18,453 nt of DNA from Azolla caroliniana (taxonomy: Eukaryota; Plantae; Polypodiophyta), in contig JBHGNT010000647.1 of the NCBI GenBank assembly GCA_043228905.1, positions 1-18,453 on the forward strand, in the 5' to 3' direction. The position numbers and the translations under genes were made by a program. This document shows positions 1 to 18,453 of the stretch, piece after piece (position 1 is the stretch's first letter; each line of letters starts with the position of its first letter). A model generated the notes under the pieces. That model saw only the letters and a list, made by a program, of their open reading frames with translations. It made no database searches and was not told the origin of the DNA.

Positions 1-1285
1 AACGTGGAATACAAGGTTTTTCGCAAGGTGAATACTACTGAGGTCGTTGCAATAGATCGTCATCGGATCAGGCACCTCCACATGCAGATCCCGTAATAGC
101 CGTTTTAGCCAAATGACTTCGCACGTAGCGACAATCACCCCTCGATATTTGGCCTTCGTGCTTGATAGTGCGACTGTCGGTTGCTTCTTGCTGCTCCATG
201 CGATTGCCACAATTCCTAAGGAGAATGCGTACCTGTATGAGGATCTATGATCGTGGGCATTTCCGGCCCAATCGGCATCCGTGTAGCCAACTAACTATTC
301 GCCTTTGCCTGCCCGATACAGCAATGCCATGTCTTTCGTGCCGCTGACATACCGTAATATCCTTTGCGTGCACTGAAAGTGTTCGGTCGTGGGCTACGAC
401 ATAAAATGACTGATCATTCTGATCGGGAAGCTGAGATCCAACCGAGTAATCGTCAAGTAAATTAGGCTTCCGACAATTTGTCGAAATCGTGTCGGGTCGC
501 ACGCCTTTCCCGAATCTTGGCGAAGATTTACGTTTTGATCTAGAGGGGTCGTGATGGGCTTATAGTCTGCCATCCCGAACTTGAAGAGCATGTTCAACAC
601 GTAGTGATGCTGGCTGATTAATATGCCTTCTGGGGAACGGATCACTTCGATCCCAAGGAAGTAATGAAGGTCTCCAAGATCCTTCATTTCGAATAATGCC
701 GCGAGTTGAGATTTTACGCGGTTGATTTCATCTAGGTTGGCACTGGCAATGACTAAATCATCAACATACAATAGAAGATAGACCGGTCCATGTCGAGCTT
801 GCCGAACAAACAATGAAGAGTCCGATTTGGACGTCGTAAACCCCATTCTACACAACCGTTGCGTAATCTTCGCATTCCAAGCTTTTGGGGCTTGTTTAAG
901 TTTGTATAGCGCCTTCTTCAATCGGCACACAACCGAAGTGTTGTGTTCGGATAGAAATCCGGGGGGTTGTACCATGTACACTTGTTCCTCAAGATCACCT
1001 TGCAGGAACGCATTCTTTACATCCATCTGATGTAGATGCCACCCCTTCGTCGCTACTACGGCTAGCAAAACACGCATGGTAGTCATCTTTGCGACAGGCG
1101 TGAAGGTCTCATCGTAATCAATGCCGTGTTTCTGCGCATAGCCTTTCGCAACCAAACGGGCCTTATATTGGTTAACCGAGCTTTCGATGTTATATTTCAC
1201 CTTATACACCCATCTGCATCCGATCGTCTTTACACCCTTCGGTGCGTTAACTAGGTCCAAAGTCTCATTATTCGTTAAAGCACGT
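1..1285 (-). pseudogene. pol: Ty1/Copia pol fragment: reverse transcriptase (RVT_2 type) followed by degenerate RNase H
   Basis: ORF 394..1329 has Copia RT motifs YKARLVAKGYAQ, QMDVKNAFLQG, LYKLKQAPKAW and LLYVDD. Reading past the stop at 394 gives GYTDADWAG and, after a frameshift, WSSKKQPTVALSS and IYCNDLSSIHLAKNLVFH (RNase H). The ORF's first ~14 codons lie in the inserted LTR. Confidence 0.95.
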
Positions 1286-1810
1286 TGTCGTGTCGTTACG
1301 CACGTACGTGTAGAAAGGGGCGGGACCACGGGGGACTTGGACCGAGGAGCGAGAGAGAGAGACAGAGAGAGAGATTCACCGACACATAGTGTCAGGAATA
1401 GTACTAAAGCAAAGATGGAATTAGTACTAAGAAGAGCAGTACTATTAGTACTAAGAGGACGGGACTACGTAAGATTCCCGAGAGAGGAAGTGAGAAGAGG
1501 AGAGAGAGAGATAGCGACGATGAAAGAGAGAGAAAGATGATGACAACAGCTAATATATTATGTGAAAAGATAAGTACAAGCGGCTAAGAGGCTTAAGACT
1601 GGGGTTGAACCAATTTGGTTCAACATAATGCCTAGTGCCTTCTTTTATAGTGTTGTCAGGAGTAATCCGGAAACTTCTAGAATGTTCCAGAGAAATCTGG
1701 AATATACATTACTTTCTTATAATAAAACATAAATGAAAATAATATCCCATGAAGAGAGCTCGACCCATATACCATAAGGTCATGGGTTCGAGTCTTGCCA
1801 TATCATGACA
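1286..1810 (-). mobile_element. 3' LTR (525 bp) of a Ty3/Gypsy chromovirus inserted into the Copia RT
   Basis: On - it starts TGTCATG (1810) directly after a polypurine tract and ends CGACA (1286). TATA-like CTATAAAAG at 1642-1650. It interrupts the Copia RT at ..RALTNNET; candidate TSD CACGT 1281-1285 (partner not in window). Confidence 0.85.
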
Positions 1811-1823
1811 CTATCTCCCCCTT
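1811..1823 (-). other. Polypurine tract of the chromovirus
   Basis: AAGGGGGAGATAG on -, between the pol stop (1822-1824) and the LTR TG. Confidence 0.85.
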
Positions 1824-3116
1824 AACGATGACAAGTGGAACTAGTCGGCGCTGATTGCGGACCGGGTTTATCTGGATACTTTCGGTGGAAATCAACAAGC
1901 AGATCCTGAGCATTGGCAACATGCTCAACGGGTTCCCAAGTGCGTTCGCTCGGACTATAACCAACCCAATCGACCAAATAATAAAGTTTGTTGCGAATAA
2001 GTTTGGAATCGAGGATGGCAACAACTTCATACTCCGGGCCGACGTCCAACTCTAGGGGGGGTGGTGGTGGTGTAACACGATCAGGAATGGTGTTTTCTTT
2101 ATAAGGTCCAAGAAGAGAACAATGGAAAACCGGATTAACTTTACCCGTAATACAGAAAGGACCGAGTCGTCGATAATCCAACTTGTCGCATGGTCGACTA
2201 GTCTTGATGTGACTACGTAAGAGCCATACTCGATCTCCGATGGCAAAAGAGGAGGGAAGCTGATGACGATCCGCGTAAGTCTTCTGTGTTTGTTGAGCAT
2301 GACAAAGATGAGTCGAGAGATCTGTCTGGATCTTGCGTAGTCTCTCCAAATGATCCCCGGCACGAGGATTGGTAGGTAGCTCCGGGGTGTCGATCACCGA
2401 CCAACGAGAATGAGAACCGGTATAAGCGTAGAATGGGGAGACTCGAGTCGAGGAGTGAACAACATTATTATACACAAAATCCGCAAAGCGGAGAATCTCG
2501 GCCCAATTGTCCTATTGATAACTCAGGAAACACCGGAGATATTGCTCCAACATTTGGTTTGTTCGCTCTGCCTGCCCATCGGTCTGAGGATGGTAGTCGG
2601 AGGAGAGGTTGTAAGAGACCTTGAGCATCTTGAAGAGATCCTGCCAAATTTTGGAGACAAATTGCGGTCCTCGGTCACTGATGATACTGTCTGGGAGGCC
2701 ATGATGCCGAAATACCTCACGCATGACTAGGGTGGCGGTTTCCTCGCTAGTGATGGCCTTAGTACACGGAACAAAATGTGCCATCTTCGTATATCGATCG
2801 ACGACGGTTAATATAGCATCGAACCCCTGCGAGACCGGCAGATCTGTGATAAAATCAAGACAAATAGACTGCCACGGCTTACTTAGAATCGGTAAGGGTT
2901 CCAACAAGTCATATGGATGGTGTCGTGGCATCTTTGCTCGACAGCAAGCATCACAAGTCCGAATGTAGTTGTCGACAAAACGGCGCATGTGGGGCCACCA
3001 AAAAGATCGCTGCACTAGCTCCAATGTCTTAGTACTACCGAAATGTCCCACCGTATGGGTGTCGTGACAATGCTGGACGATTGGAAGGTGACAGGAGCAA
3101 TCGGGGACATATACGC
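1822..3116 (-). pseudogene. pol: Gypsy chromovirus (Tcn1-like) integrase with C-terminal chromodomain, 5'-truncated
   Basis: ORFs 2512..3165 and 1822..2475 are in frame, split by one TAG. Motifs: HHCC zinc finger (HD..GH..CDAC), DFITDLP, VVDRYTKMAHF, SDRGPQF, HPQTDGQAER, KLDYRRLGPF, and chromodomain EYEVVAILDS..YLVDWVGY..TWEP. Confidence 0.93.
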
Positions 3117-3712
3117 GCTTTGGAATCGGAGCTCGTATTTTTATCTTTCCGACGCGCCTCCTCATCTAGCAAGCTCAACTTTACTCTTGCTAGGGATAGT
3201 CGTTTTCCTTCCGGCCCGGCGTTGCCCAATGTGACAACCAACGTCTCCCAGCTATCCGGGAGGGAACCGAGCAGGAGCAGCGCTAGTACCTCATCCGCGA
3301 GAGGTACTTCCAATGAAGTTGCCTAGTGGATCAGCCCTTGGAAGGCATTCATGTGCTCCGCCATGCTGGAGTGATCTTGGTACCAGAGTCTTACTAGCTT
3401 CCGGAATACCGAAACCTGATTAACAACATTTTTGTTTTGAAACATTATGCCGATCTTCTCCCAGAGCTCATGAGCCTTGCTCTCTTCATTGAAGTTGTTG
3501 TACAAGCTCATGTCGATGAAGCACCGTATGTACGCCGTTGTCTTCATGTGCATCACCTCCCATATCGCGGCATCGATTTTGTCCGGTCTCTTGACCCCGA
3601 ACTGAACCGGAAACCAGAGGTCTTTAACCACGAGCATGTCCCTCATCTTCGACTTCCACACTGAATAGTTGGAGCCGGTGAGCTTGAACATGCCGCCAAA
3701 CGATTCATCCAT
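3117..3712 (-). pseudogene. gag: Ty1/Copia gag (Tnt1-like), 3'-truncated
   Basis: KLTGSNYSVWKSKMRDML..DLW, then LLLLGSLPDSWETLVVTL..LLDEEARRK (UBN2-type gag). ORFs 3323..3712 and 3035..3313 are in frame across one TAG. It begins just after the PBS. Confidence 0.92.
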
Positions 3713-3727
3713 TTTCTGTGTCGTTTT

Positions 3728-3739
3728 GCTCTGATACCA
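3728..3739 (-). other. Primer binding site, tRNA-iMet
   Basis: TGGTATCAGAGC on -, 2 nt after the LTR end (..CGTCA). Confidence 0.95.
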
Positions 3740-3741
3740 CT

Positions 3742-4472
3742 TGACGAGAACTCAACGCTCCTTATCCGCAACGCTCGGCCACAACCGAGCTTAGAATAAT
3801 ACACAGAAAAATGGGAAATAATAAACGACACAAAGAAGAGAAGAGTACACAGGAGGTTTACGTGGAAAACCCCAAACTAGGGAAAAAACCACGGCAGCTC
3901 ACAGGCTGCAAATTGTCACTATGTAAGAATGTACAACAGTGAGTTCACGGAGGCAACGACCTCGTGCTCACTATCTTTGCCACAGCGACCTGCGGCGGTT
4001 ACAACTGAGGCAGCGACCTCTATCTCTCTCTCTCTCTCTCTATGTACACTGTTACGCGCACTAATCTCTTGCAAAACAAGAATGACAACTACTACTAAAA
4101 GTTTGCCCTAAGTCATATTTATACTAATATGAATTTTCGGCTATTTACAAATATAGCCTCGATGGACTCTCAAAAACATAATTACGAATATGTCTCTTCA
4201 TCCGGTGAGCACTTCTCATCGGGCCTGCACCATCCGGCTCTACGTAGCCGGGTACTCCTCATCCGGTTCTCACCGGGCCTGCACCATCCGGCTCTCCGTA
4301 GCCGGGTACTCCTCATCCGGTTCTCACCGGGTCTGCACCATCCGGCTCTCCGTAACCAGGTACTCCTCATCCGGTTCTCACCGGGCCTGCACCATCCAGC
4401 TCTCCGTAGCCGGGTACTCCTCATCCGGTTCTCACCGGGTCTGCACCATCCGGAGGGACCTGTCTCCCAACA
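3742..4472 (-). mobile_element. 5' LTR (~731 bp) of the Copia element
   Basis: On - it starts TGTTGGG (4472) and ends CA (3742) next to the PBS. TATAAAT near 4117-4123; (CT)n tract ~4024-4041; candidate TSD GGTAG 4473-4477. Confidence 0.85.
4213..4453. repeat. 54-bp tandem repeat, ~4.5 copies, in the Copia LTR U3
   Basis: Unit TTCTCACCGGGCCTGCACCATCCGGCTCTCCGTAGCCGGGTACTCCTCATCCGG starts at 4213, 4267, 4321, 4375 and 4429 (partial). Confidence 0.95.
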
Positions 4473-4847
4473 GGTAGTGGAACCATTATCAACACACTAC
4501 ACAATCTAAGCAGCAATCTAAACATAATAGTTTTAACAATAGAAGACAAAGATCCATAATAACAACATGGACAGTCATGGCAACAATTGTAGGGCCATAT
4601 TATGTTAAGGTTAGCTTGGACCAAAATCAGCCTCAATTTAAACTAATTCATGTTTCTCCATAAATTTGGTAGTTAGCTATGCACGCGGTGAAACCAATGT
4701 CATAAATCTACTAACCAAGTATATAAAAATAAAATTGAAACATATAGAAGATTATAAAGAATAGAATTCACTAGGTAAAACCCAAAATCTGTATTAATAA
4801 TGTGAAATCCAAACAAATCGTCAGTGTCATTTTCTTCATAGAGTCTA

Positions 4848-7800
4848 TTACATAGCAATCAATTCATCAACGCCATTTTCTTCATCATCTTGTGTAGAAC
4901 TCTCTTCGGCTATACGTGCATTGGCTTCCCCTGTTAGCCGAGCCAACGAAATATCTTCTATAAGCTCATCATCAAGCTCTATTAGCTCCCCCGGTTCGCC
5001 GGCTAACGGAGGAATAGGCTCTCGTGAAGCAGGTTGAAACCATTCTGTATTAGCGAGGTTCTTTGCACCGACCTCCTCATCCTGGTCTAGGCACTCCCAC
5101 AAAGCCTTAATCCGCATATTAATAAATATAACCTGCTCCTCGTCCTTCTCCAATGCAACTATATTTCTAAAGAGCTTCAATGCACATGCAAACGTCGTTC
5201 CTGTGAAGTAACAAGAAGATTTAGTTGTCAAACAAAAAAGATTCGGTATTGGTTATCTCAAGATCGTTACCCTAGTTCGAGGAATACCTGTGCCAGAAAA
5301 GAGATCTAATATCCAGTCTCCTTCGATAGAAAACATCTCGATCAAGCGCATCATAAGTCGTTGAGGTTTTTGATATGGGTTGACAAGTCCCCGTTCTGTC
5401 TTGGTGACATGTCGCAATTTCCATGTCACTGCTAGATATACCAACAGATTTGAACCTCCCACTTCATTAGAATTCTCCTTGATTTTCTGTTTCTTAATTT
5501 CATCGAAGTAGCCAACCGTGATGTATTCAATGACATTAATGAACCGAAAAGTTGGCCCTCTATTTACATTGGTTTTTATCCTATAAAAAATATTACATCG
5601 AGTTAAGAATAGATTGAACAACCTTAAGAAATGCAATATAGTGAATGAGACCTATAAATAATCCTTACCATGCAAGGTTCTTGATGCCATGGCAACGAGA
5701 TCTCAAAGCTTGAGATACCGAGTACCCTTGGTCCATACTATGAAAGACAACTATTCGCCACAAGGATGCAGTCGTTAGCTCAACGAAATCCTTGACCATC
5801 TTCTCCAATTGTTTAAACCTAAACGGTTCATCGTCGTATCATGACCCAACCATTCGAAATCTGTAAGGAGTATCTACAATCATTAGCGTATATTCCTTCT
5901 TTGGCACTTTTTGGATCAAGTCAACGACATTGCCGCAAACCACATTGTAGTAAAGATCTCTCGTAATATCTTTTTTGTTGCTAAATTTTTTAAAGGAGCC
6001 ATCTTCCTCCATTTCGTACGCCTTGACTAAGCGAAGATCCTTTTCTTTTCTGGCTCGCTCGAGATGTGCAAGGAAGGATGTAGGGAAATCGTGTATATCC
6101 TTAACTTCTCCTTATTTCTTGCCACGACACGGTTTCTAATAGAAGCAATAGGACATCAGGTATTATTATACAAGCTCTACATATAATGAAAGTGTAATGA
6201 AAAACCACCAATACTAACCCAATGCTTGAATGCAATAAAATACTCTGATAATGCCTTATATGAAGACGTTAGAAGATAATCCTCGGTCACTTGTTCCCAA
6301 GTTATACATCCAAGTTGTTTCATCATAACTTCTTGGATCTTCATGTACACCTTATGACTGTAAAATTAGAAATCAAGATTAGAACTTTGAATTACACCAT
6401 ATAGACTACAATTTCAGTATTTGAAAGACTTACTTATTGAACTCAGTGACCATTTCTTCAAGGCTTAAATCTTTCGCCACAACCCTTGACAAAACAGACA
6501 CAAGAAGCTGCTCGTCCTTAATACTTTGCATCGCTATCCACAGAGACAGCTTCATGTCGTCAGCCGCTTCTTCAATTGTCAAGTCAATTTTCTTGGCGGC
6601 TTGTGACTTTAACTCTAGTTGAGGGTCAACCTTACATTTCTTTTGTCGTTGACCCTTTACCTCCTTATTCTCCCACATTGAGAAGATTTGATCCTGTAGG
6701 TCCCATACTTCTCCATCTCTAAAGGCCAGTTGAAACCAAGACTCATATTTTCGAAGACCATCGGACTTAACATTATCATCTACAACAATACCGACTTCAT
6801 GCAGACATTGACGTCGTAGACCTGGATGTAGCTTCACACCAAAATTTTGTTTCACGTCCAAATACTCATGGTGGAAGAACCGTATACGCTCAATCAACGA
6901 CATTTTCTGCCTATAGTCATTATCATTATTATGGTCCCATGCCAAAAGCTTGGCCTCTTCAGTTGTGAGCCCCACATAAATTTTGCACTCGGCATACTTG
7001 AAGAAGAAAGTCGTTGGATGTTCTCTCACAAGTTGCCGACGTGCCTCTGCCGAATGCGATCCACCAATGACAAAGTAATTATATTGATCATGCTTTCTAA
7101 TATCAAAATCTTCAATGGTTTCAGATTCTTCAGGATCTACCATAACAATAAAAGGCACCACAGTGGCATGAGGATTAATTTTCATTTTTTTCTTCAGATT
7201 TTGTACATGCATGTGGTGTGGCTCTCTAATCTCAAGTGGTCTTCGACCTGTTTTTTCATCAATAGGGGGCCGATGGATGTGTGTTATAGGCAAATTAAAC
7301 ATTTGCCTTTTCCTGACTAGTTTACACTGCATTAACTCTCTCCTTATCTTATTCTGCTTGGATGACAACACACCCGATGCCAGCTCAGCTCCTGGCGTCC
7401 CCTTAGTGTCCTCCTCTTCATTTTCACTTGTTGAATCAGAGTTCGACATTTTGGTTGTCTTCTTCTTTGGTGCTCTTGATTGTACTTTAGATACCCTTTT
7501 TGTGGCCTTCACTAGGGAGGGCACTTCATCTCTTAGAGTTACATGGCCTTGTATATAAGGCCTCAAGGTAACAATAAGGTTTTGTGAGCTTTCAAGATCT
7601 TTTTTGAACGCTTCGGGCCCACAAGATTCCTTTACTAGAAGATCTTCTAAAAGGAACACTTTACGTACCCCCTTGGAGCACTCTATCATTACCAGTATGT
7701 TGGCCGAATCTGCATCTTCGTAGTCAAATCGTAGAATACGGCCATACATAAATGGGGTTTCCTTTCCAAGCTGCCCCTCCCCCTTCTTCTTTGTTGTATA

Positions 7801-9107
7801 CAATACGACTTTTTTCTTTGAGTCGACATATTGCATACACCATTCCTTGTCCATTAGATCACGGTCAGGAAGGTCTTCACCTCCAGTTGCTGCTACAAGT
7901 TCCTTTTGGCCGACATCAATGTGTGGTTGAGATTTTCACTCCTCGTTGAAGAGAAGCTTTTTTCCTCTCTTGATGGACTCGGGAGCTACTAGGGTTTGTG
8001 TTTCGATTGGAGAACCCTGTATGCGAAGCTTTATTTTCTTCACAGGTCAGTCCGACAGGTCCTCAAACGACCTATTTAAGAAAGTACATGCGAAAACATA
8101 AGTTAGGCAGTCACGTAGATTAAGGTTGTATATTAAAATATAAATAAGTAGATGAAGAAATACACTAGCAGGCGATTAGTGGTGAACTATAAATATCAAT
8201 CATGCATTTAGAGTATATGGTAGTCCTATATTCAAATATCGTAATGAGTATACAACTTAGAAAATATATATCGTAATGAGTATACAAGGTTATATATTGT
8301 CTTGAAGGGCAGGTATGACTTATATTGATTCCATAACTACATTGTAGATAATTTGCATATGATAGACTTGAGATTGGTATCGTAAAGGCAATTTATGAGT
8401 TATTTTCTACTATTTTAGGCTATAGAAGGTCATAAAACACCTATAATTAAGGCCTGTTTTTTTTAAAAAGTAAGGGAAGTCGACATAAAAAAGACTGATT
8501 TTGACAGCCAGTTTGATAAAAAATACTAAATTGTTGCCCAAAAACACAAGATATCGAGCAAAACGCAAAAATAATCCTGGAACTCGACACACGTTATCAA
8601 GTTCCTGTTTTAAACACAAATATTCCACAGGAACTCGATACGCTGTATCGAGTTCCTGTTTAAAACGCAAAGAAAACATAGGAACTCGATACGGCATATC
8701 GAGTTCCTGTTTAAAACCTTAACTTTACACAGGAACTCGATACGCCGTATCGAGTTCCTGTGTGTTCTTTGCTTTTTAAATAGGAACTCGATACGGCGTA
8801 TCGAGTTCCTATTTAGAGTTAAGGTTTTAAACAAGAACTCGATACGCCATATCGAGTTCCTGTGTGTTCTTGTTTAAAAAGAAAAGAACACACAGGAACT
8901 CGATACGGCGTATCGAGTTCTTGTTTAAAACCTTAACTCTAAACAGGAACTCGATACGCTATATCGAGTTCCTATATAGAGTTTGTATTTTATACAAGAA
9001 CTCGATACGGCGTATCGAGTTCTTGAGTGACAAAACATATTTACAAAAATGTCCACAGTGTCAGAGGCCTACCTAGAGTCCTGGCGCTCGATTCTCTTTG
9101 AAGACAT
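4848..9107 (-). pseudogene. Six-exon gene: ParB/Srx-like domain fused to a beta-class N4-cytosine/N6-adenine DNA methyltransferase (~974 aa, four in-frame stops)
   Basis: Exons on -: 9107-9073, 8071-6434, 6357-6219, 6135-5669, 5580-5288, 5200-4848. All introns are GT..AG and phase-consistent (2925 nt). Spliced product: ParB-like PFIVMV..YFVIGGSHSAEARRQL..IYVGLTTEEAKLLA..HN (~7300-6880); VVCGNVVDLIQKVPKKEYTLMIVDTPY (motif IV, 5874-5863); AWIKTN..IEYITVGY; NPYQKPQRLMMRLIEMFS.EGDWILDLFSGTGTT..CALKLFRNIVALEKD (motifs X-I-II). Stops at 8049, 7938, 6114 and 5841. Exon 1 is the least certain. Confidence 0.85.
8578..9024. repeat. Array of nine 29-bp palindromes AGGAACTCGATACG-S-CGTATCGAGTTCCT with AT-rich 22-bp spacers (one 32 bp)
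   Basis: Copies start at 8578 (degenerate), 8629, 8680, 8731, 8782, 8833, 8894, 8945 and 8996. Confidence 0.97.
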
Positions 9108-9230
9108 GGTTGATCTTGTGGCAGTGGAGGCGGAGATCACGCTTTCGTGCTTCGTGCTCTGTGTGCTCTGTCGCTCTTTGTGCTCTTGTATGGTCTTGTG
9201 TACTCTTGTGAGTGAAATATGACGAGGTCT

Positions 9231-9244
9231 TCCTTTTTATAGGG
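9231..9244 (-). promoter_or_regulatory. Candidate TATA box of the ParB-MTase gene
   Basis: CCCTATAAAAAGG on -, ~130 bp upstream of the predicted ATG at 9107. Confidence 0.5.
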
Positions 9245-9423
9245 ATTGACCATAGTGGTTAAAGTAACCATAGTCACCCTAACCAAGGTTGGTAAGTTTG
9301 AGGTTAGTTAGTTGGTAATCATAGTCACATTAACTAGAGTAACTTATGATTGCATTAATGATTACAAAGTCATAACAACTTACAATGACTTTAAAGGTCA
9401 TGAAGGAGACAATGATAGAGGTT

Positions 9424-9607
9424 CATGAATGTACCAATGATTGATTACTAAAAGCAACATTTTTATGACTCTCAATTGTTGTGTATTAAAGATGTGGGCA
9501 TGAATTAACCAATGATTGATAAGTCTAATATTTACAATGGTGAGCATTAATGAACCAATGACTGAGAGGTTCTATATCAAATATGGGTGCCATTAATTAG
9601 CCAATGA
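9424..9607 (+). promoter_or_regulatory. Four repeated CAT(G/T)AATnnnCCAATGA elements (CCAAT-box-like) between the divergent genes
   Basis: CCAATGA at 9434, 9509, 9555 and 9601, each preceded by CATGAAT or CATTAAT plus 3 nt. Confidence 0.5.
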
Positions 9608-9911
9608 TTTTAACTTTAATCCAACATATTTATGGGTTGGTAATGATTGGATTTATATTATACTTGATTTAACTTCATATAGACCTAGTTTAAATAATTA
9701 TTGATATTTTAAATACAATTACTATATTAAAAATAATATTTCTATGTATTGTATTAATATAATATTAAATAATATAGACATTCTATTGAGGGAGCTTTTG
9801 TTTAGAGAGAAGTTTATGTTTAGAGAGGAGTATATGTTTAGAGAGGAGCTTATTAGTTTTTTGGCTTAGCCTAAGCACATAACTTATAGAGCCCTATCTA
9901 GACCTTAAGCC

Positions 9912-12699
9912 ATGAGTGAAGATTCACCGTTCTCGATTGAAGAATATTGTCTGTCATCAGACTCATCGTTTTCTACTGAAGAGTATTGTTTGTCGACAGA
10001 CTCACCATATTCTATTGAAGAATATTGTCTGTCGACAGACTCACCATATTCTATCGAAGAATATTGTCTGATCTCATCTTCACCTACAGGGAATGTAAAT
10101 AATGACACAAGTGAAGAGTTCTCTATTGAAGAATACGATATTAATAAAGATACGGAGAATGAAGGTAGTGCCAATGAAACATCGAATAACATTGGCAATG
10201 GTCACAACAAAGAATTAGATTGTAACAAGGTTACACCAACCTCTATGCAAGAAGAGAAATCTGGAAGCCCTATGCATATTAGAAGAATCCCACGAAGAAT
10301 TTGTCTAGCTAGATTTAGCTTGGTGACATCAGATAAACAGATTGGATTTGATGTCAAAAAAATATGTTGTGCCCGTGGTTGTATGTCTATGATTGGAAAA
10401 TCAAAGTTGCGAGAATTAAGGTGATACTATTTTTCGATGACTGGTGATGAGCAAGAAACTTACCTCGGGTCACATATGCAACTAGTATCTGACAAATGTA
10501 CGGGGATCAAAGTATCATTCGAGTATTATATCTTCCATGCGCAACAGATATGTAGAGTTGCATTCAAAATTGCATTATGTGTTAGTAACATGTGACTACA
10601 TAGAGTACAACAACGTCTACTTAGTAGGGATCAGATGCTCAATTGTAAAGAGGTTCCAAGTATGAAAGGTGCAATTGGAAGACATGCTATTGGTTGGATG
10701 AAAAGTTACTTTCAGTTAAATTGTGAAGTAATGCCTACTACAGGTAGAATGCACCTTTCTGATAATTATACACGTCGGGAAGTTTATGATGTTTATCGAT
10801 CTGATATGGTGGGCTCACGTAATAAGTCTATCACCTATAGCCAATTCACAAGATTATGGAGAGCTCGGTGTTTTCAAATGTTATCATTCCACGTAAAGTA
10901 CGCATGGGGTATTGCTCCATTTGTGCAAATCTTAAAAGTTTGGCTAAAGGTGCAAAGACATCAATGGAAAGGATATGAGTAAGAAGTCACTACAAGAGCA
11001 TCGTGAGGCACAATCGTTAGAACGAAAGAAGGCGATGCATCATAGAGAGAAGTTTTTGAAGTGGCCCGAACAATACATGTGCTTAATGATAGATGGCATG
11101 GACTAGAAGAAGACGTGCTTGCCGCATATGCGGAGGCTCCCCAAAGATGTCAATGATGAGTGCCTTGTTCAAATGCACTTGGTGGGATGCTTGGCTTATA
11201 ATAGGTCTGTTGGACCTCACGTCTTCATTACATACCCCAATGTTCACAATGACCCTAACCTAACAGTTACAGTGATTCACCGAGTTTTGATGTCTTGGGG
11301 CCAACCTTTCCCCCCTGTTCTATACATTCAATTGGACAATACTGCTAGAGAGAACAAAAATTCAACTGTGTTTGGCTATCTAAGTATGTTGGTCAACCAA
11401 GGATTGTTTAGGAAAGTGAAAGTCAATTTTCATTTGGTTGGCCACACACATGACAATATAGATCAAATGTTTAGTACATTCTCTAGACAGTTGTCTTGGC
11501 ATGATGGTTTCACATTACCTAAACTATTTGATGTCATTTGTGATGTATATACACCACGCCCAAAAGTGTTACACTTGAAGGAGGTATATGACTTTAAGAG
11601 ATATATATCAGATGGGGGTGTTGGGAATGTTAAAGTGCTTGCCCAGTTAAACAATATAAGCTTCAATCACATTTTTATGATAAAGAAAAATGAAATAAGT
11701 GGTTCTACACTTTTGTATGCTAAACAATATTCATCTTCTACAACATGGGAACCTAAAGGTGGTTGCCAGTTATTACTTTGTATGCCGAGTACAATTGTCC
11801 ATGGAGCTAAGCAAATGCCAATTCAAAAGAAAGGACAGTTGCAGAGTGACTTGGTATCGGAACAACAACGGTTATGGCTCCAAGCCTTAGAAGAAAAAAT
11901 AAAGCATATTGAGGCCGCCAAGAAATATGCCGCACAACAAGACACGTCATGGTGGGATGTATTTTTATAGTGATTAGAAAGGAATTATAGACAATTGTGT
12001 ATTTGGCAATAATTGGAATTTGGAAATGCCATTCACATGGTCGCTGCAACATGATCGTGTAAATAGAACTCCGGAGCAACCAGCAAATGCGATTAATGAC
12101 AGCTTGGTCCATCCACAACAAAGAGACATTTATGTGGGACCAAGGATGACCAAAGCAGCCGAAGCTAGATGGCAAGGCAATTTGCAAGAGCTCACCGCGG
12201 GGATGTTGATTGCAACGCCGGCTGATGAGAACTCACATGGCCACCAATTTTGGGTTGGTAAAATGTAGAAGTGCTAATGCATGAAATAGAAAACACGATC
12301 AAGTCTATAAATGTTCATTGGTACAACACTAGAAGTGCAAATGCTTTTACAGGTAAGTATACATTGGAGATGATTGAATGCCCAACAACAAGGGGAGGTA
12401 GGAAGAGGAAGCGAAACATTCGTAACACCTCGACCCTTGATATCTCTGATGTGGATATCATCGTGTATGACTTCACCCTTACAAAAGCCGGACGATTAAG
12501 GAAGTCAACAATAGATATAATAAAAGAAAAATTACCAAGTCTACAAGGTGGCTCGAGTCAAAGGCAAACGAGATCTGCTACATATAATCTAGAGTCAAAC
12601 CATTTGGTTTATGACGAAGATAATGCACTGATTGGTACATCTGAGGATGACGAGGAGGAATCGTCATTGTATATTAGTTATAGTAGTGATTCTCTGTAA
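9912..12699 (+). pseudogene. DDE-type transposase, Sola-like/DUF7869-type, with stops and frameshifts
   Basis: Joining ORFs 9912, 10635, 11119, 12020 and 12271 gives CCARGC, CRVAFKIALCVS, RMGYCSICANL (after a frameshift at ~10870), MCLMIDGMD*KKTCLP (D at 11092), LYIQLDNTARENKN (D at 11335) and FHLVGHTHDNIDQMFS (11452/11461). The superfamily call is from motif recall, not a search. Confidence 0.75.
9921..10076 (+). repeat. 39-bp coding tandem repeat x4 (DSPYSIEEYCLST) at the transposase N-terminus
   Basis: Seen in ORF 9912..10424; a partial fifth copy (EFSIEEY) lies at ~10116. Confidence 0.9.
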
Positions 12700-13020
12700 A
12701 GGAGTGATCATGAATGTATATTTGGCTATTAAGTGTAACTACATTCCGCTTGTAACAAATCGAGTAATATAAAAGCATGTGTTTTGAGTTCTTATGATTT
12801 CTAAAAAATCGTTTCTTATAAAATAACATTGGTTGTAAAGTTTGTGATATAAATTGAGAATGTAACTTTTTGAAATTCGTCTTTTTTTAGTTACTTCTAA
12901 ATCACGAAAATAGTGGATTTTTAACCTTTTTCATAGTATGTCTGAACATGTATGATACTGGTATCAATGTGTTTTGTAAAATCATTGAAAAAGCCCTAAA
13001 ATCAACCAAGTTTTCCCTTA

Positions 13021-13628
13021 TCCTTCCATTTATGCGCAATCCTTCCACTTCTGAATGCGAACGTGTTTATACCACTTAGGTCGAAGGTGTGTTAGTTCTT
13101 CTTCTTCTTACTTTAGAGTTCTTTGAGATCTTCTTCTTCGTGTCTGTTTAGGGTTTTAGCCCGGTGAAGAGCTTGGATGTTCTGTGGGGACTTACTTCTG
13201 CTCGGCCTCCTGTGCAAGACCCCGCTCGGCGTGACAAGCCCGAGAGCTCCCCGACGGCGGCTTAGCAGTAGACTGCTGTTGTGACCTAGGCTACCTTAGT
13301 CCGGCTCGGAGCCGGAGTTATCTTTCTCTTGTACATACATATATATATATATAGTGAAGTTTTGTGCATCTGTGTCTTTGTCGATGTCTTTGGAGTTCCT
13401 TCTTTCTGGTTTCTGTACATAGGATGTGTGTGCCTAGTAAGTGTTGCGTGCACGCCCTTTTCCCCCCTCCCATATGGTTGCTTCTTGTACGTGTCCGGAA
13501 ACGCTCTGGTTGGTGTCTTGGCCGGTCGCGGGAAGAAGTGAGGCTTGACCTTCCATACCCCATCTCTCTCTCGTCCGAGACCCCCGTGGTCCCGCCCCTT
13601 CTACATGCACGTACGTCACAACGCGACA
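13021..13628 (+). mobile_element. Gypsy-type LTR (3' LTR or solo; 5' boundary uncertain) related to the LTR at 17380-17923
   Basis: Ends ..CCGAGACCCCCGTGGTCCCGCCCCTT..CGCGACA (13628). Over ~300 bp it is colinear with the reverse complement of 17380-17700 (TATCTTT..CTTGT..ATATAT..TTTGTGCAT). No PBS follows. Confidence 0.75.
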
Positions 13629-16600
13629 ACATGCCCCGTTGTTGGCCCTTCGCTTGGCCGTATGCATGCTCCGCTCTCCGCATACTGATGTCCTCAGCGT
13701 ACGAGGAACACCCCGTAGTAGCCTGCTTGGCCACTTTCATCTTGCGCTTCTGCCACCGGTTCGGAGCCTTCCACTTGCCGTCGTCCCCTCACCCCCACCA
13801 ACTTGTTATCTCGGGTTTGGCACGCCACGCCAGTCGTTGCTATTCCGACTAAGCCGTTGAGATCTCTGAAGCGGGTGTGGAGGATCCTCCTCCGAACCTT
13901 GATATTGACTCATGTCTTCAACCGTGCAGCTTGTAGTGCGCCCTCGTCCACGTTCCCGGCATCATTGTGTGTCGTCTTCTGTTCCCTTGATCGGTGCCAC
14001 CTGCACCGAACACCGTCCCTTAGTCGTGCTTTGATTCGGCCCTTGATGGCCAGTTGCATGATTCTTCTTCAGCTCTGGGTGTGCCTTTCCGGCCCTGCAC
14101 ACCTTCTCATGCTTACCTTGCCGGCCCTTCGGAAACCGTAACCGGCTAGTTAAGGTTTCGCAACCCAACTACCCCATCTTGCCGGCTCTCGTTGTTGCCG
14201 GGTCCCATTTCCCGTCGTGACCGTCTTTCTCCTTGGTCTTACGTCGCCTCGCCGGCTTGCACTACCAAGGTCTCCGGAACCGATGTGAGGACCCCCATAG
14301 GACCGGTCTTTCTTTCTCTTCTCCTGCCTTCCGCGTTGTCTTCCGGCCCGACTTCGGTTAGTGGCTGATTGCCGCCCCCTTTTGCTTGATCCCGTTCACC
14401 TGCCACCACAATCCTCCTCACTCGGTCTCACGTTGCCATGTCGGCTTGAACTGCCGGTGTCTCCGGATTGGTGTGAGGATCGCCGTAGGATCGCCCATCC
14501 GCACTCCCTACATTGCCAGTTCCCGTTTCCTACCGCCACCATGCTTCATACTCGGGCTCACGTTGCCACGTCGGCTTGAATTGCTGATGTCTTCGGATTG
14601 GTGTGAGGATCCCATAGGATCAGTCTTCTCTTTCCGCTTTGTCCCTTTTTCCATCGACCTTGCCGGAAGGTCCGGTTTTTGTTTGCGGCCGCCTCGCCGG
14701 CCCGATACCTCCTTGCCGCTCTACCTTTGTCACCCAATCACGTTCACCTGCCGCCACCGTCCTTTCCTATAGGACTCACGACGGCACTCAGGCCGACTGT
14801 TGGATCGGTGTGAGGATCTCGCGGGACCTCCCCCTTTGCCTTCCCTTGCCTTCGTCCCCTTCCCGTTACTCTAGGTCTCATGCCGGCTCTCGAGCCGACC
14901 GCCGGAATTTGTAGAACCGGTGTGAAGGATCCTCCTTGGGCTTGTCGTATTTCTGACCCTTATCCCGGGTTGTCTTTGTCCACTCGTTGCACACCCTCTC
15001 CCGTGGCACCGTCATACCGCATTCCTGGCCTCTTCGTAGGTATGCTCTCTCCCCTCTTCTGGATCGATTATCTTGAAGTCCGCTCCACCCGGTTCTCGTC
15101 CGGGTCCGACCGTCATTCTCTAGATTGCTGGGTCCCGTTCTCCTACCACCACCGTCAATATCTTGGTCTTACGTTGGATCCGATGCCGACCGCTGAAATC
15201 TCTAGCCTGGTGTGAGGTGACCCATAGGACCGGTCTTCGTTCTCTGCTTGCTAGGTCCCGATTCCTGCTGCCACCGTCCTTCTCCTTGGTCTTACGTCGC
15301 CTTGCCGGCTTGCACTGCCAAGGACTCCGGAACCGATGTGAGGACCCCCATAGGACCGGGTCTTCGTTCTCCCTATCTGAATCAGTTGTATTGGTCGTGA
15401 CCTCTACGTCCTCACCGCCACTTTCCGTCTCTTAGGTCTTCCATTGGGTCACGGACGCAACCGCCTAAGTCTCGGGAATGAGTGTGGAGGACCCATACTT
15501 TAGTCAACCGTCTCTTCCATTTCTCTCCGTTGCCGTCATCCCCCTTTCTTGCGCTTCCCCAACATCTCCCTTCTCTTTCGGTCTCACGTTGCCATGTTGG
15601 CTCAAACTGCCAAAGTCTCCGGTCAAGATCTGGGGTAACCAATTTCGTAATGACTCCCGGCGACTCGTCCCAGGCCACCGACCCTTTTAGTGGTGTCAGT
15701 GGATAGCATCCTCTCTGTGATCAACCAAGGCCCTCCTAGGCTTGATTCTCCAATGTCTGGAGTTTCGGCTCCGATGCCGATCCTGCCGGACGCGTTCTGA
15801 ACCCTTGATCACCTCCGTTTTGATTCCTGACCTTTGCCTGGTCGGTCTTTCTCCCCATGTAAAAGAGGGAGGCTCGTTCCACACCCTCTCACGTATCAGC
15901 ACCTTCATGCCGATTCTGGCCCTGGTCGAACAATCCATGACCGGATCGTGCTCCACCCGAATCGGAGCGCCGTGCGGTTCAGTCTCCGATCGGGTTGTTT
16001 CTTGGCCTCTTCGTCGACCTTCTCGTGGGCCACTTCCCATCCATCTTCATTGGCATCGTGCTAGGACTCCTCGATACCATCATCCATCTCCTCGGTTGCG
16101 TGGGCATAAGGGCCCAAATGCCGAGTTCTCCGGAATTGGTTTTGAGGGCTTTTGTCCGCTCCTTCCTTGTATCATCTCGCTGGCGATTCTCGGTCTCACA
16201 CCGCCACCTTCCTCCTCTTGGGACTCACGTGGGCACTCGGGCTCGATTGCCATTGTCTTGGGAGCAAGTGTGGGAACACACGTAGAACTGCCCGTCCTAT
16301 TTGCGCCTTTTTCCATAGCCACCTGCTCTTCGTGGTCGGTGGCCATCCCCTTACCGATTGCGTAAGCCCCGCCTGGGCTTGCTTCTCTAATGTCCGGAGC
16401 CTTGGGCTGACGTGCCCAAAACCACCAGTTCCAACGTTCCGATTCTGCGATCGATATCTCGGCCTTGTCCTTGGCCGTTCTATCTCTGCAATCCGAGAAC
16501 GTGTTTTGTTCCGCACCCTCTCCCATGGTACCGTGGTACTAGTCTTTTGCCATCTCATGGGGCAAGTCCGTCTCCTCAGCGTTGGTTTGCGGCCTCGTTC

Positions 16601-17342
16601 TTTCCTCTTCCTCGAGCATTGCCTCAAGAGCTACGAATGCCTTTGCAATCCTGACCGCGAAGCCGAGCCTTGCCGATTCACTTTGCCGTTCAACCTCTTC
16701 CCGCTGTGATGGCGCGCTTTCGCGCGCCTTCCTCCCAGTCTTCTCAGCTCGCTTGACATCTAGCCGTTGGCATACCCTTCCAACCTTCGACTAGTCCTCC
16801 GTAAGGTCATTCACTCCGTCGTCGTCTTCGAGCTCAATCCCGATGGCCTCCCGATCCGCTTGGTCGATCGACCTAACGAACAACAAGACTTTGTCTGCCC
16901 CCACCAAACCTTGCTCCCGCTCTGGGAGCTGAGCAAGCCGTCGCTCGAACTCTGGGAACGCCTTCGTTGCGCCCCGGTGGGTCTTCGTCGATGCCACCCA
17001 CTGGTCGAAGCCGCGTTGTCCCCCATATGCCTGTAGGAGCGCCTATTTGAAGACCTCCCACGAACTATGAGCTTACCGGAGCTCCTTCACTTCCGCGTGC
17101 ATACGGACGACGACGACTCGACAGAAGAACTCCAGCCTCAACGCCTCATCTACGTCTCGTTCCTCCATTTCCGCGTTCTAGGCTTCCAAGTGGAATGGGA
17201 CTTTGTCCCCGTTGAAATGGCTGACTCTTTCGACCACTCGCTCAACAGCTTGCTACGCCGTCTCTGTTCTTGTTGTTGCTCGTCCAAACTCCCTCACCGC
17301 TTCGACCAAGAGTTGCGCGAAGTCGTCTTCTTCCAACTCCAT
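13629..17342 (-). pseudogene. gag: Internal region of a tRNA-Trp-primed Gypsy element: degenerate gag followed by repeat-rich sequence with no recognisable RT
   Basis: ATG at 17342. Fragments FNGDKVPFHLEA*NAEME..WEVFK*ALLQAY, FERRLAQLPERE..DKVLLFVRSID..LEDDDGVNDLTED, and a possible protease remnant ALVDH (~15725). Many stops and frameshifts. Confidence 0.65.
13870..15640. repeat. Dispersed degenerate internal repeats (~9 copies; core GGTCTYACGTTGCC..GGTGTGAGGAYCCCATAGGACCGGTCTT)
   Basis: Core at ~13874, 14284, 14470, 14600, 14807, 14919, 15209, 15336 and 15482. 14221-14310 and 15274-15364 are nearly identical. Confidence 0.75.
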
Positions 17343-17357
17343 TCTCCCTTGCCGCCC

Positions 17358-17375
17358 TTCACATCGGGTTCACCA
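17358..17375 (-). other. Primer binding site complementary to tRNA-Trp
   Basis: TGGTGAACCCGATGTGAA on -, 4 nt after the LTR end. It matches 17/18 to the plant tRNA-Trp 3' end as I recall it (TTCACGTCGGGTTCACCA). Confidence 0.85.
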
Positions 17376-17379
17376 GAGA

Positions 17380-17923
17380 TGTCGCATTATTACGCGCGTG
17401 CGTGTCAAAAGGGCGGGACCACGGGGGTCTCGGACGAGGGAGGAAGGGATGCCGAGAAAACCGACTCCGGACACAACCCGGAGGCAACCAAACACGAGAG
17501 GGAGAGAGAGAAGAGAGAGAGAAGAGAGAGAGAAGAGAGAGAGAGAGAGCATGCGCGCGACACCGACTCTTATACACACAGGAAACAAGAAAGGGTTGTG
17601 CTCCCGGCACCACCAAATACACCAATATGCACAAACCGATACGATTATATATATAACAAGGGAAAAGATACAACCATGGCTTCCAGCTGGCTACGCTCAT
17701 TAGAAGAGAAGTTAACCTAACAACTTTGCCACCATAGCTGCGGCGCCCGACTTCGCAAGAAGGAGAAGAAGAAGAAAAGAAACAAGAAGTTACTAACCCT
17801 AGGAACCCTTAACAAAAGAAAAGACCCTCTACAAAACGGTATACCCTTACGACTCAAAATGGGCAACCCCATACAAGAGAACCCTTCCTTCCTTTTATAG
17901 CCCAAGGAGGGAAGGACGTTACA
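17380..17923 (-). mobile_element. 5' LTR (544 bp) of the Trp-primed Gypsy element
   Basis: On - TGTAACG (17923) .. GCGACA (17380); CTATAAAAGG at 17900-17891; (GA)n tract ~17495-17549; followed by the PBS. Confidence 0.88.
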
Positions 17924-18103
17924 ATGTGGGATAAATCCATATTACATGGGATCCTCTGTCCCAACTTTATTGCCTATTCGGCGCCACAAAGGCACCCCTT
18001 TGCCCTTATGCTAATTTTGTACAAGGGTGCGTGCACATGGTGCACCTTGCCGATCCTCCCAATATTCTCCGATTTCTCACTGAGGCCCGAAATCTTCATG
18101 ACA
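17924..18103 (-). mobile_element. 5' fragment of another LTR inserted in Copia pol and itself interrupted at 17923
   Basis: Copia homology stops at CTDCLV, where TGTCATGAAG begins on - (18103). The TGTCATGA terminus is the same as that of the LTR at 1810. Confidence 0.65.
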
Positions 18104-18453
18104 TCGACCAGGCAATCGGTGCACTTCTCAAGATGCACGTGCTTCACCGGAATGAGGTTGTCTTCGGCTAGCCTCCTCATCCCCTTCTCGCTCATGTGAC
18201 ACAGTCTCTTGTGTCACAACTCACCGGTAGTGTCGGAAGCAGTGTTCACTTCTTCCGGGCTTAATCGGGCATTAATCAGGTACAATGTGTTGACCTTCCG
18301 GGCCTGAGCCACTATTAGGCTCCCCTTGGTGAACTTCATGACACTGTTCTAAATGCTACCCATATAGCCTTCATCATCTAGCCGATCAGCTGATATCAGG
18401 TTCAGTCGAACCTTCGGAACGTGTCGGACATCCTTCAGCAACAACTTGCATCC
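18104..18453 (-). pseudogene. pol: Ty1/Copia pol fragment (protease C-terminus and GAG-pre-integrase domain)
   Basis: LLLKDVRHVPKVRLNLISADRLDDEGY..LYLI..L*HKRLCHMSEKGM..CTDCL, with in-frame stops. Confidence 0.9.

Follow-up and report, generated by a model that had tools for sequence, protein, structure and literature searches.

The closest described counterpart of the locus analyzed here is Sola1-1_Ec32 of the brown alga Ectocarpus, in which a gene running opposite to the transposase encodes a 1104-residue protein with ParB-like and N4-cytosine (N4C)/N6-adenine (N6A) methylase domains; self-modification of the element was proposed, and green- and red-algal precedents for the design were cited, in the accessible part of that report (PMC12477816). 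We compared it with a stretch of 18,453 nucleotides (the window) from the fern Azolla caroliniana (contig JBHGNT010000647.1, assembly GCA_043228905.1), positions 4478..13067 of which are a decayed copy of a Sola1-like DNA transposon, delimited by blastn and 20 fetched copies of 87-94% identity. Its accessory gene, on the minus strand, is predicted to splice a ParB/sulfiredoxin (Srx)-fold domain to a beta-class DNA methyltransferase (MTase). The algal element is Sola1-type and the plant element Sola1-like; both have a 4-bp target site duplication (TSD), termini beginning AAC and an accessory gene opposite the transposase. The algal element is 21.5 kb long, with a 282-bp imperfect terminal inverted repeat (TIR) and two intact copies (PMC12477816), whereas the plant element is ~9 kb, has a 29-bp TIR, encodes a protein of ~974 aa, exists in many young copies and contains a defined palindrome array. 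This comparison is by description rather than protein sequence, and the accessible part of the algal report does not describe the ParB pocket (PMC12477816). In the red alga Bostrychia, Plavaka elements carry a ParB-domain accessory gene beside tandem inverted repeats (10.1101/2025.02.11.637652). Their PAG2 and PAG3 genes, as described in the available portion of that preprint, resemble the plant gene in that one transposon bears both a ParB-like domain next to tandem inverted repeats and a PF01555 methylase, but they encode a ParB-2-oxoglutarate oxygenase and a methylase-SET protein as separate genes, alongside an EnSpm/Plavaka transposase. The surprise of the plant locus is limited, because the overall design of a ParB-methylase gene on a Sola1 element is already published for Ectocarpus. 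Our literature search, whose coverage left out most subscription journals, found no report of a land-plant version or of an arginine-less ParB class, and neither the arginine-less pocket nor the phage link described below was found in print. The new parts are an arginine-less pocket under extreme constraint, a probable link to a phage family with the motif GNHT, and a defined candidate binding site.

The ParB/Srx-fold domain lies at 6859..7311 on the minus strand. An earlier note on this DNA had quoted a series of ParB-pattern motifs within 6880..7300, and the six-frame translation places every one of them in a single minus-strand open reading frame (ORF; 7854-6430): LPITHI, LEIRE (7236-7222), HVQNLKKKM, PFIVMV, YFVIGGSHSAEARRQL (which contains GGSHS), CKIYVGLTTEEAKLLA, WDHNN (6939-6925) and MSLIER. 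A search of 1.84 billion proteins gave 385 homologous matches at E<=0.001, the best 150 of which were listed. The Pfam ParB_N domain (PF02195) has no match in the window, in 67 aligned family members or in the host genome; DUF6551 was touched by five of the 67 members (best E 0.019) and HTH_ParB by one (E 0.03). The missing ParB_N match reflects sequence divergence rather than a different fold. The residues encoded by 7332-6433, aligned with 66 homologues, were modeled with AlphaFold2 (predicted local distance difference test score, pLDDT, 89.9; predicted template modeling score 0.77). All 30 listed rows of a Foldseek search of the Protein Data Bank (PDB) were Noc, ParB, PadC, KorB, Srx, SbnI or Atu1540 (best E 6.7e-6). 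An independent structure aligner, VIA, matched PadC (Z 10.2, root-mean-square deviation 3.0, 100 residues aligned), KorB (Z 9.2, deviation 12.0), SerK (Z 8.4), Srx (Z 8.0) and pNOB8 ParB (Z 7.7, with 203 residues aligned across the ParB and helical domains), with the earliest unrelated row only at Z 4.2. A viral fold library returned mainly ParB-like proteins, with E values from 1.9e-6. The fold assignment of the earlier note, which was to fall if the predicted fold were not ParB/Srx, stands because the Foldseek and VIA matches to the model are of ParB/Srx type. A PDB sequence search with the homologue alignment gave no match at E 10, and a search for longer homologues covering only proteins of 1674-4780 aa found none and was uninformative. 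A homodimer prediction for the ParB and helical domains scored 0.00 (mark 0.32) and was counted neither way. The domain also resembles unnamed Atlas clusters of cnidarian (0.97) and molluscan (0.95) origin, as well as a fungal one (0.96) in which 31% of members carry DUF3723; from these clusters, the family may reach into animals and fungi.

ParB proteins carry the signature GxxRxxA, according to the accessible part of one report (PMC13495010). Box II of the plant domain reads GGSHS (7065-7051), with serine in place of the GxxR arginine. The Box III asparagine (N135, codon 6930) is present, as is R36 (codon 7227), which aligns with the arginine of the phage N-P-R motif and which we take to be the Box I arginine. 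Ser94 is assigned to the GxxR position because the phage profile aligns its GNHT both with GERR of Noc and with the plant GGSHS; the same profile alignment equates the plant DHN with phage DN and Noc EN, N135 reaching Noc EN through the phage profile. This residue map confirms that the arginine reported as missing is that of Box II. In the conservation check that the earlier note proposed, arginine was absent from all 66 ungapped homologue rows (68 rows span the motif), which include Chara, a liverwort, a fern and ginkgo. The commonest forms are GGNHS, GGSHS, GGNHG, GGGHS and GGTHS, and the serine position is also occupied by Thr, Gly or Cys. The neighboring residues are mostly kept: in rows less than 50% identical to the query, R36 is retained in 27/32, N135 in 45/47, G90 and G91 in 44/48, H93 in 45/48, A97 in 40/48 and Arg or Lys at position 98 in 42/48. 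The Srx signature GGCHR is not found, cysteine occurring in few homologue rows and arginine in none. In the host genome GGSHS is present in 40/40 loci selected by ParB score, some of them overlapping, and in 8 of 10 readable copies selected by TIR. We rejected the possibility that GGSHS is a mutation of the window's dead copy, since the arginine is absent family-wide; its loss is ancient and not particular to this copy.

To measure selection, substitutions shared by at least two copies were compared with those private to one copy in a set of 20 TIR-selected copies plus the window. A first ratio of non-synonymous to synonymous substitution (dN/dS) of 0.02, obtained from ParB-score-selected copies, was put aside as biased, and the analysis was repeated on the TIR-selected set. 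For shared substitutions, dN/dS was 0.04 in the ParB domain (18 synonymous, 3 non-synonymous), 0.05 in the helical domain, 0.12 in the N-terminal domain of the accessory protein, 0.18 in the MTase and 0.20 in the transposase core. The corresponding ratios for private changes were 0.34 for ParB, 0.38 for the helical domain, 0.61 for the MTase and 0.80 for the transposase core. The absence of the arginine across the homologues, together with the lowest dN/dS, therefore identifies the arginine-less ParB domain as ancient and as under the tightest constraint within the element.

That the ParB domain is fused upstream of the MTase proved correct by way of predicted splicing, the join spanning four GT-AG introns. 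The predicted protein, encoded by six exons, consists of N-terminal, ParB and helical domains, a linker and the methylase. Exon 1 (9073..9107; ATG, 35 nt) is predicted from a GT donor and fit of phase, with a TATA-like box upstream at ~9232-9244, and its ATG and donor are present in 17/17 copies. Exon 2 (6434..8071, 1638 nt) encodes the first three domains, exon 3 (6219..6357, 139 nt) a helical linker, exon 4 (5669..6135, 467 nt) the start of the MTase with motif IV, exon 5 (5288..5580, 293 nt; Pfam N6_N4_Mtase E 7e-10) PYQKP and the S-adenosylmethionine-binding motif I (DLFSG), and exon 6 (4848..5200, stop at 4850) the end of the MTase and an acidic tail; all are on the minus strand. Exons 2-6 read through as one frame without a stop in 12 of 17 complete ParB-selected copies, and the motif order DIPYG, PYQKP, DLFSGTG is found in 16/17, with DLFSGIG in the remaining one. 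The window's own accessory-gene copy is dead, having four internal stops, two in exon 2 (8049, 7938) and two in exon 4 (6114, 5841), and its motif IV (DTPY, 5874-5863) reads DTPYR where intact copies have DIPYG. Outside the host genome, the ParB domain and the MTase, or MTase motifs, occur as single proteins in Chara braunii, Riccia sorocarpa, Adiantum nelumboides and Ginkgo biloba, and the fused homologues include P0006, P0013 and P0055; the motifs are conserved across streptophytes. PF01555 matched 6 of the 67 aligned members, several of the gene models being partial. Two metagenome scans for transposase linkage in other species found none.

The MTase is assigned to the beta class by motif IV preceding motif I, by PF01555 and by fold. 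A full-length model of homologue P0151 (pLDDT 73, about 90 in the domains) matches CcrM (E 2e-12), M.BceJIV, M1.HpyAVI, M.MboIIA and M.RsrI first, with N4CMT (2e-9) and PvuII, both N4C enzymes, ranking below them. The plant MTase shares the fold and the order of motif IV before motif I with CcrM, M.BceJIV and M.RsrI (N6A) and with N4CMT, PvuII and Marchantia DN4MT1 (N4C). It is transposon-borne and has D-x-P-Y as motif IV, in contrast to the TSPPY of 4-methylcytosine enzymes given in the available part of the Marchantia preprint. From this motif and the top matches of the predicted fold, N6-adenine would be a likelier target than N4-cytosine, although this lean is not decisive.

The helical domain that follows ParB (6434..6858) is a candidate DNA-binding domain, occupying the position of the helix-turn-helix (HTH) domain of ParB and KorB. 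No C-terminal ParB dimerization domain was seen in the plant protein. The N-terminal domain (7525..7854) is family-less, with no relevant Pfam match; its best Atlas resemblances, to a small phage cluster of low recognition (0.87) and to DUF3104 (0.84), are leads only. In the relative P0084, the helical domain is instead preceded by a SAM domain. A search for RNA data sets that contain the copy, made with its transposase half, listed none. Assembled RNA contigs of three runs, compared with the greater part of the element (methylase gene included), contained no splice joints and were uninformative on expression.

Fusions of ParB to N6N4 methylases are frequent in phages, according to the accessible part of a survey of the ParB fold, which adds that nucleotide specificity is not predictable from sequence (10.1101/2025.10.10.680097). 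In our viral fold search, rank 19 was gp1 of mycobacteriophage Vincenzo, a ParB-methylase fusion with the motif GNHT, whose domain matches 310 phage records. The motif was found in 13 of 16 translated phage coding sequences, as GNHT in 11 and GNHR in 2. Gordonia phage RedWattleHog gp206 has a GNHT ParB domain followed by a beta-order DPPY methylase. We found 133 bacterial relatives, kept 80 and parsed 67, of which 20 run into a methylase motif, 17 of these with DPPY and then HPxxKP; GNHT was present in 66/67 parsed loci, partly by construction, one of the two scan patterns having required it. At the sequence level, the phage GNHT profile matches both Noc and ParB (E 6.5e-6). The plant profile matched GNHT profiles with 18-95% probability and E values of 1e-3 to 7e-8, depending on the set and the match-state rule, and a profile of nine canonical ParB proteins with 0.3% probability (E 0.22); the phage set was seeded from the fold match and the profile score leans on the common motif. 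The closest prokaryotic profile is thus that of the arginine-less GNHT ParB family found in actinophages and prophages, and on this profile evidence the plant ParB domain is likely to be akin to it. Both lack the Box II arginine and keep the Box I arginine and Box III asparagine, and some GNHT proteins have a loop of similar length after the Box II helix. The phage proteins differ from the plant protein in lacking the helical domain and introns, and in Vincenzo gp1 motif I precedes motif IV.

The earlier note had suggested that the fusion, of a kind familiar from phages and prophages, may have been captured whole. The idea of a phage-type ancestor is upheld in design and profile by gp206 and by 17/67 bacterial loci. 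Capture of the whole fusion is not: no phage record aligned over both domains, and 344-380 aa separate the ParB motif from motif IV in the plant proteins vs ~140 in the phage type, ~200 extra residues. tblastn with the plant ParB and helical region found no phage match and two chance plasmid matches, and homologue P0006 matched 1170 phage records, of which the 85 rows examined all begin at residue >=328, in the methylase only. Eukaryotic and phage contexts of ParB were described in another report, which, in its accessible part, records a chlorophyte Dam joined to an HTH of ParB type, few N6A-MTases in land plants, and phage ParB-terminase loci to which it ascribes a DNA modification that serves packaging (PMC4738411). 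In several phages (L081-L093), GNHT ParB genes stand beside genes for a queuine/DpdA transglycosylase, a PAPS reductase, a Mom-like protein and a methyltransferase, with terminase genes near.

Intron 1 of the accessory gene contains an array of nine palindromes with 11-bp arms and a 3-bp center (8580..9022), which are candidate parS-like sites. The period is mostly 51 bp, and complete copies have 2 to 16 palindromes. The array lies ~4 kb from either TIR, between the promoters of the head-to-head accessory and transposase genes. Exact sites number 2359 in the host genome vs 0 for the reversed pattern. Over 147 units the palindrome core is 93-100% invariant, while outer spacer positions drop to 30-46%.

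The earlier note had proposed a nucleotide-gated clamp that loads at specific sites and spreads methylation. That proposal is weakened by two partly accessible sources. In B. subtilis ParB, the R80A mutant neither binds cytidine triphosphate (CTP) nor diffuses, whereas N112S binds without hydrolysis (PMC9458438); and in the fold survey, where 11 of 28 purified proteins bound CTP, ATP or GTP, mutation of the arginine to alanine abolished binding (10.1101/2025.10.10.680097). The plant protein resembles the canonical ParB, Noc and KorB clamps in fold, in the Box I arginine and Box III asparagine, in the order of ParB-fold domain and then helical domain and in nearby palindromes, but differs from them in the change of the GxxR arginine to serine, the dimerization domain that was not seen, the absence of ParA and the fused methylase. 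The plant protein is therefore unlikely to be a sliding CTP clamp of the canonical kind, because the Box II arginine is needed for CTP binding and diffusion and for nucleoside triphosphate (NTP) binding. We propose instead, at what we judge to be about an even chance, that the arginine-less domain spliced to the MTase serves as an anchoring or pairing module on the element's own palindromes. The helical domain would read the 25-bp palindromes of intron 1, as the HTH of ParB and KorB reads parS. The ParB domains would then pair adjacent subunits along the 51-bp-period array, their conserved Arg-His-Asn pocket holding a phosphate-bearing ligand, either the DNA backbone or a nucleotide, without CTP turnover of the ParB kind. 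The D-x-P-Y methylase might write an amino-methyl mark, more probably on N6-adenine, at or near the shared promoter region, and such a mark could keep active copies transcribed or distinguish them from dead ones. The proposal starts from the splice-able fusion, the anatomy of the element, a Box II arginine lost throughout the family and the strong purifying selection, all of which are observed; each of its steps is inferred, and both folds are model predictions.

Several observations weigh against an anchoring module. A stop-free ParB-MTase fusion occurs in only 2 of 13 modeled TIR-selected copies. The helical domain only weakly resembles the DNA-binding domains of ParB proteins, which score Z 3.5-4.8 and rank among unrelated bundles; by VIA, the domain alone gives Z 4.8 to the KorB DNA-binding domain, level with designed bundles. 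About 9 of 13 spacer bases on each side of the palindromes are also well kept, so that array homogenization may explain part of the conservation. The copies bear a host 5-methylcytosine (5mC) footprint, with private C-to-T changes of 9.9 (CG), 8.4 (CHG) and 2.6 (CHH) per 1000 site-copies; A/T transitions are at 1.2, so that C-to-T at CG and CHG sites is 7-8 times higher. Palindrome CG sites are not visibly spared, at 5-7/302 per position, a different measure that allows a rough comparison. Finally, the three conserved pocket residues would fit true nucleotide binding equally well.

The last point leads to a non-canonical nucleotide-gated clamp, which we find doubtful, in which the pocket binds NTP with His93 and Arg/Lys98 replacing the arginine patch, palindrome loading closes the ParB gate, the methylase dimer closes the ring and the mark spreads along the element. 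Beta-class MTases act as dimers; the Box I arginine, the Box II Gly, His and Ala and the Box III asparagine are kept from Chara to ginkgo; the ParB dN/dS is the lowest in the element; the order of ParB and then helical domain is that of ParB and KorB; and the GNHR found in 2/13 phage relatives suggests that the family toggles at the arginine position. ParB-fold fusions are able to bind CTP, ATP or GTP, yet the GxxR arginine was needed in all binders tested in the survey, and the accessible part names no N6N4-MTase fusion among the 11 binders (10.1101/2025.10.10.680097); the arginine was likewise needed in B. subtilis ParB (PMC9458438). The C-terminal dimerization domain of ParB was not seen either. 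Rather doubtful, in our view, is the broader notion of a widespread and so far undescribed arginine-less ParB switch class, comprising GNHT phages and GG[S/N/T/G]H[S/T] plant transposons, that gates a methylase and in land plants loads on a eukaryotic parS-like array, has its ring closed by the methylase dimer, slides and writes N6-methyladenine (6mA) over its own transposon. The protein might alternatively serve transposition, by palindrome binding that bridges or marks donors for the transposase or by methylation that licenses or blocks excision; this seems unlikely to us. Dam methylation controls excision of bacterial IS10 and IS50, the gene is arranged head-to-head with the transposase, the phage GNHT ParB genes stand beside DNA-modification and terminase genes, and the 5mC footprint implies that silencing is not generally prevented. 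The packaging-related modification suggested for the ParB-terminase context (PMC4738411, accessible part) points the same way, but the palindromes are remote from the TIRs, and L067, a TIR-selected copy from which most of exon 2 is missing, still shows both ends and a TSD, so that the gene is not needed in cis.

An enzymatic role for the ParB domain, as a small-molecule enzyme of Srx/SerK/SbnI type with ATP-dependent phosphotransfer or as a nuclease rather than a DNA-organizing domain, is quite improbable. The VIA scores of SerK and Srx are close to that of PadC, and a few homologues read GGCH[S/N], which is similar to the Srx motif, GGCHR, with its catalytic Cys and Arg. Cysteine is, however, confined to a small minority of rows, Srx-type enzymes to our knowledge retain the motif arginine, and only chains of ParB/KorB type align over both domains. 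Least probable of all, and by a wide measure improbable, is that the ParB domain or the methylase is a passenger relic that is now functionless. Most TIR-selected copies, like that of the window, are broken, and MTase motifs are missing from some homologous gene models (P0011, P0026, P0027), but the dN/dS of shared variants in ParB and MTase is well below that of private ones and the motifs are conserved across streptophytes. For the ParB domain, the relic explanation is largely refuted.

Enzyme-written 6mA in land plants is still debated, and this transposon, which is young, present in many copies and equipped with intact methylase genes and a defined candidate target, makes the question directly testable. 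Should the arginine-less switch class be real, a clamp of the parS/ParB style would have been put to new use in a plant nucleus, as an epigenetic writer that addresses itself. Mutation of the Box II arginine is the negative control that abolishes NTP binding in the available part of the fold survey (10.1101/2025.10.10.680097), and a family that has long been without this arginine, retains the remainder of the pocket and is selected more strongly than its own transposase is a natural test of the other roles of the fold.

The intact element, reconstructed from the 20 fetched copies, is a cut-and-paste transposon of 8.6-9.5 kb. The window copy lacks ~670 bp of the left end including the left TIR, a copia long terminal repeat (LTR) abutting the break, and retains the right TIR, which starts AACACG (13039..13067, minus strand). 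The 4-bp TSD was present in 17/17 ParB-selected copies with both ends; among 20 TIR-selected copies, 13 have both ends within 10 kb and 12 of these an exact 4-bp TSD. The host genome has at least 150 domain copies at >=95% identity (the best 150 of 1163 candidates were scored) and, from 225 exact left termini, at least 225 copies of the element. A divergent query apparently recovered the same family again, with many positions in common with the first set (best 131 of 1599 candidates scored). Prokaryotic contamination was rejected because the gene has spliceosomal introns, the 22 largest contigs carry copies and the neighbors are copia and gypsy elements. A small contig (C434) has two ParB-exon copies in opposite orientation 11 kb apart (6069-18175).

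The transposase (9912..12699, plus strand) is broken in the window. It matches Pfam DUF7869, a family that we associate with Sola transposases, at E 4e-50 (7e-51 in an intact copy), has three Asp-bearing motifs and is a 927-codon open frame in 13/17 complete copies. Repeats of 39 bp at 9920-10070 (plus strand) encode an acidic 13-residue repeat at its N-terminus. Its C-terminal region (~12150-12500, plus strand; FWVGK...VHWY) has no Pfam match and is reminiscent of chromatin readers of BAH/PWWP type. Upstream of the gene are four CCAAT-containing direct repeats spaced 46-75 bp (9424-9609) and three 18-bp repeats (9791-9853), which are probable promoter elements.

To the left of the DNA transposon, 394-4472 holds nested pieces of LTR retroelements, comprising a copia reverse transcriptase (394-1329), a gypsy integrase with SH3 and chromodomain (1822-3165) and a copia gag (3323-3712); the stretch that abuts the transposon's left break (4213-4482) is LTR-like and contains tandem repeats of 54 bp. 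To the right, 13300-18453 is pyrimidine-rich, mostly 55-58% GC and full of short overlapping ORFs, and is probably another repeat. Its right end and 3773-4324 match an insertion in the transposon copy L041.

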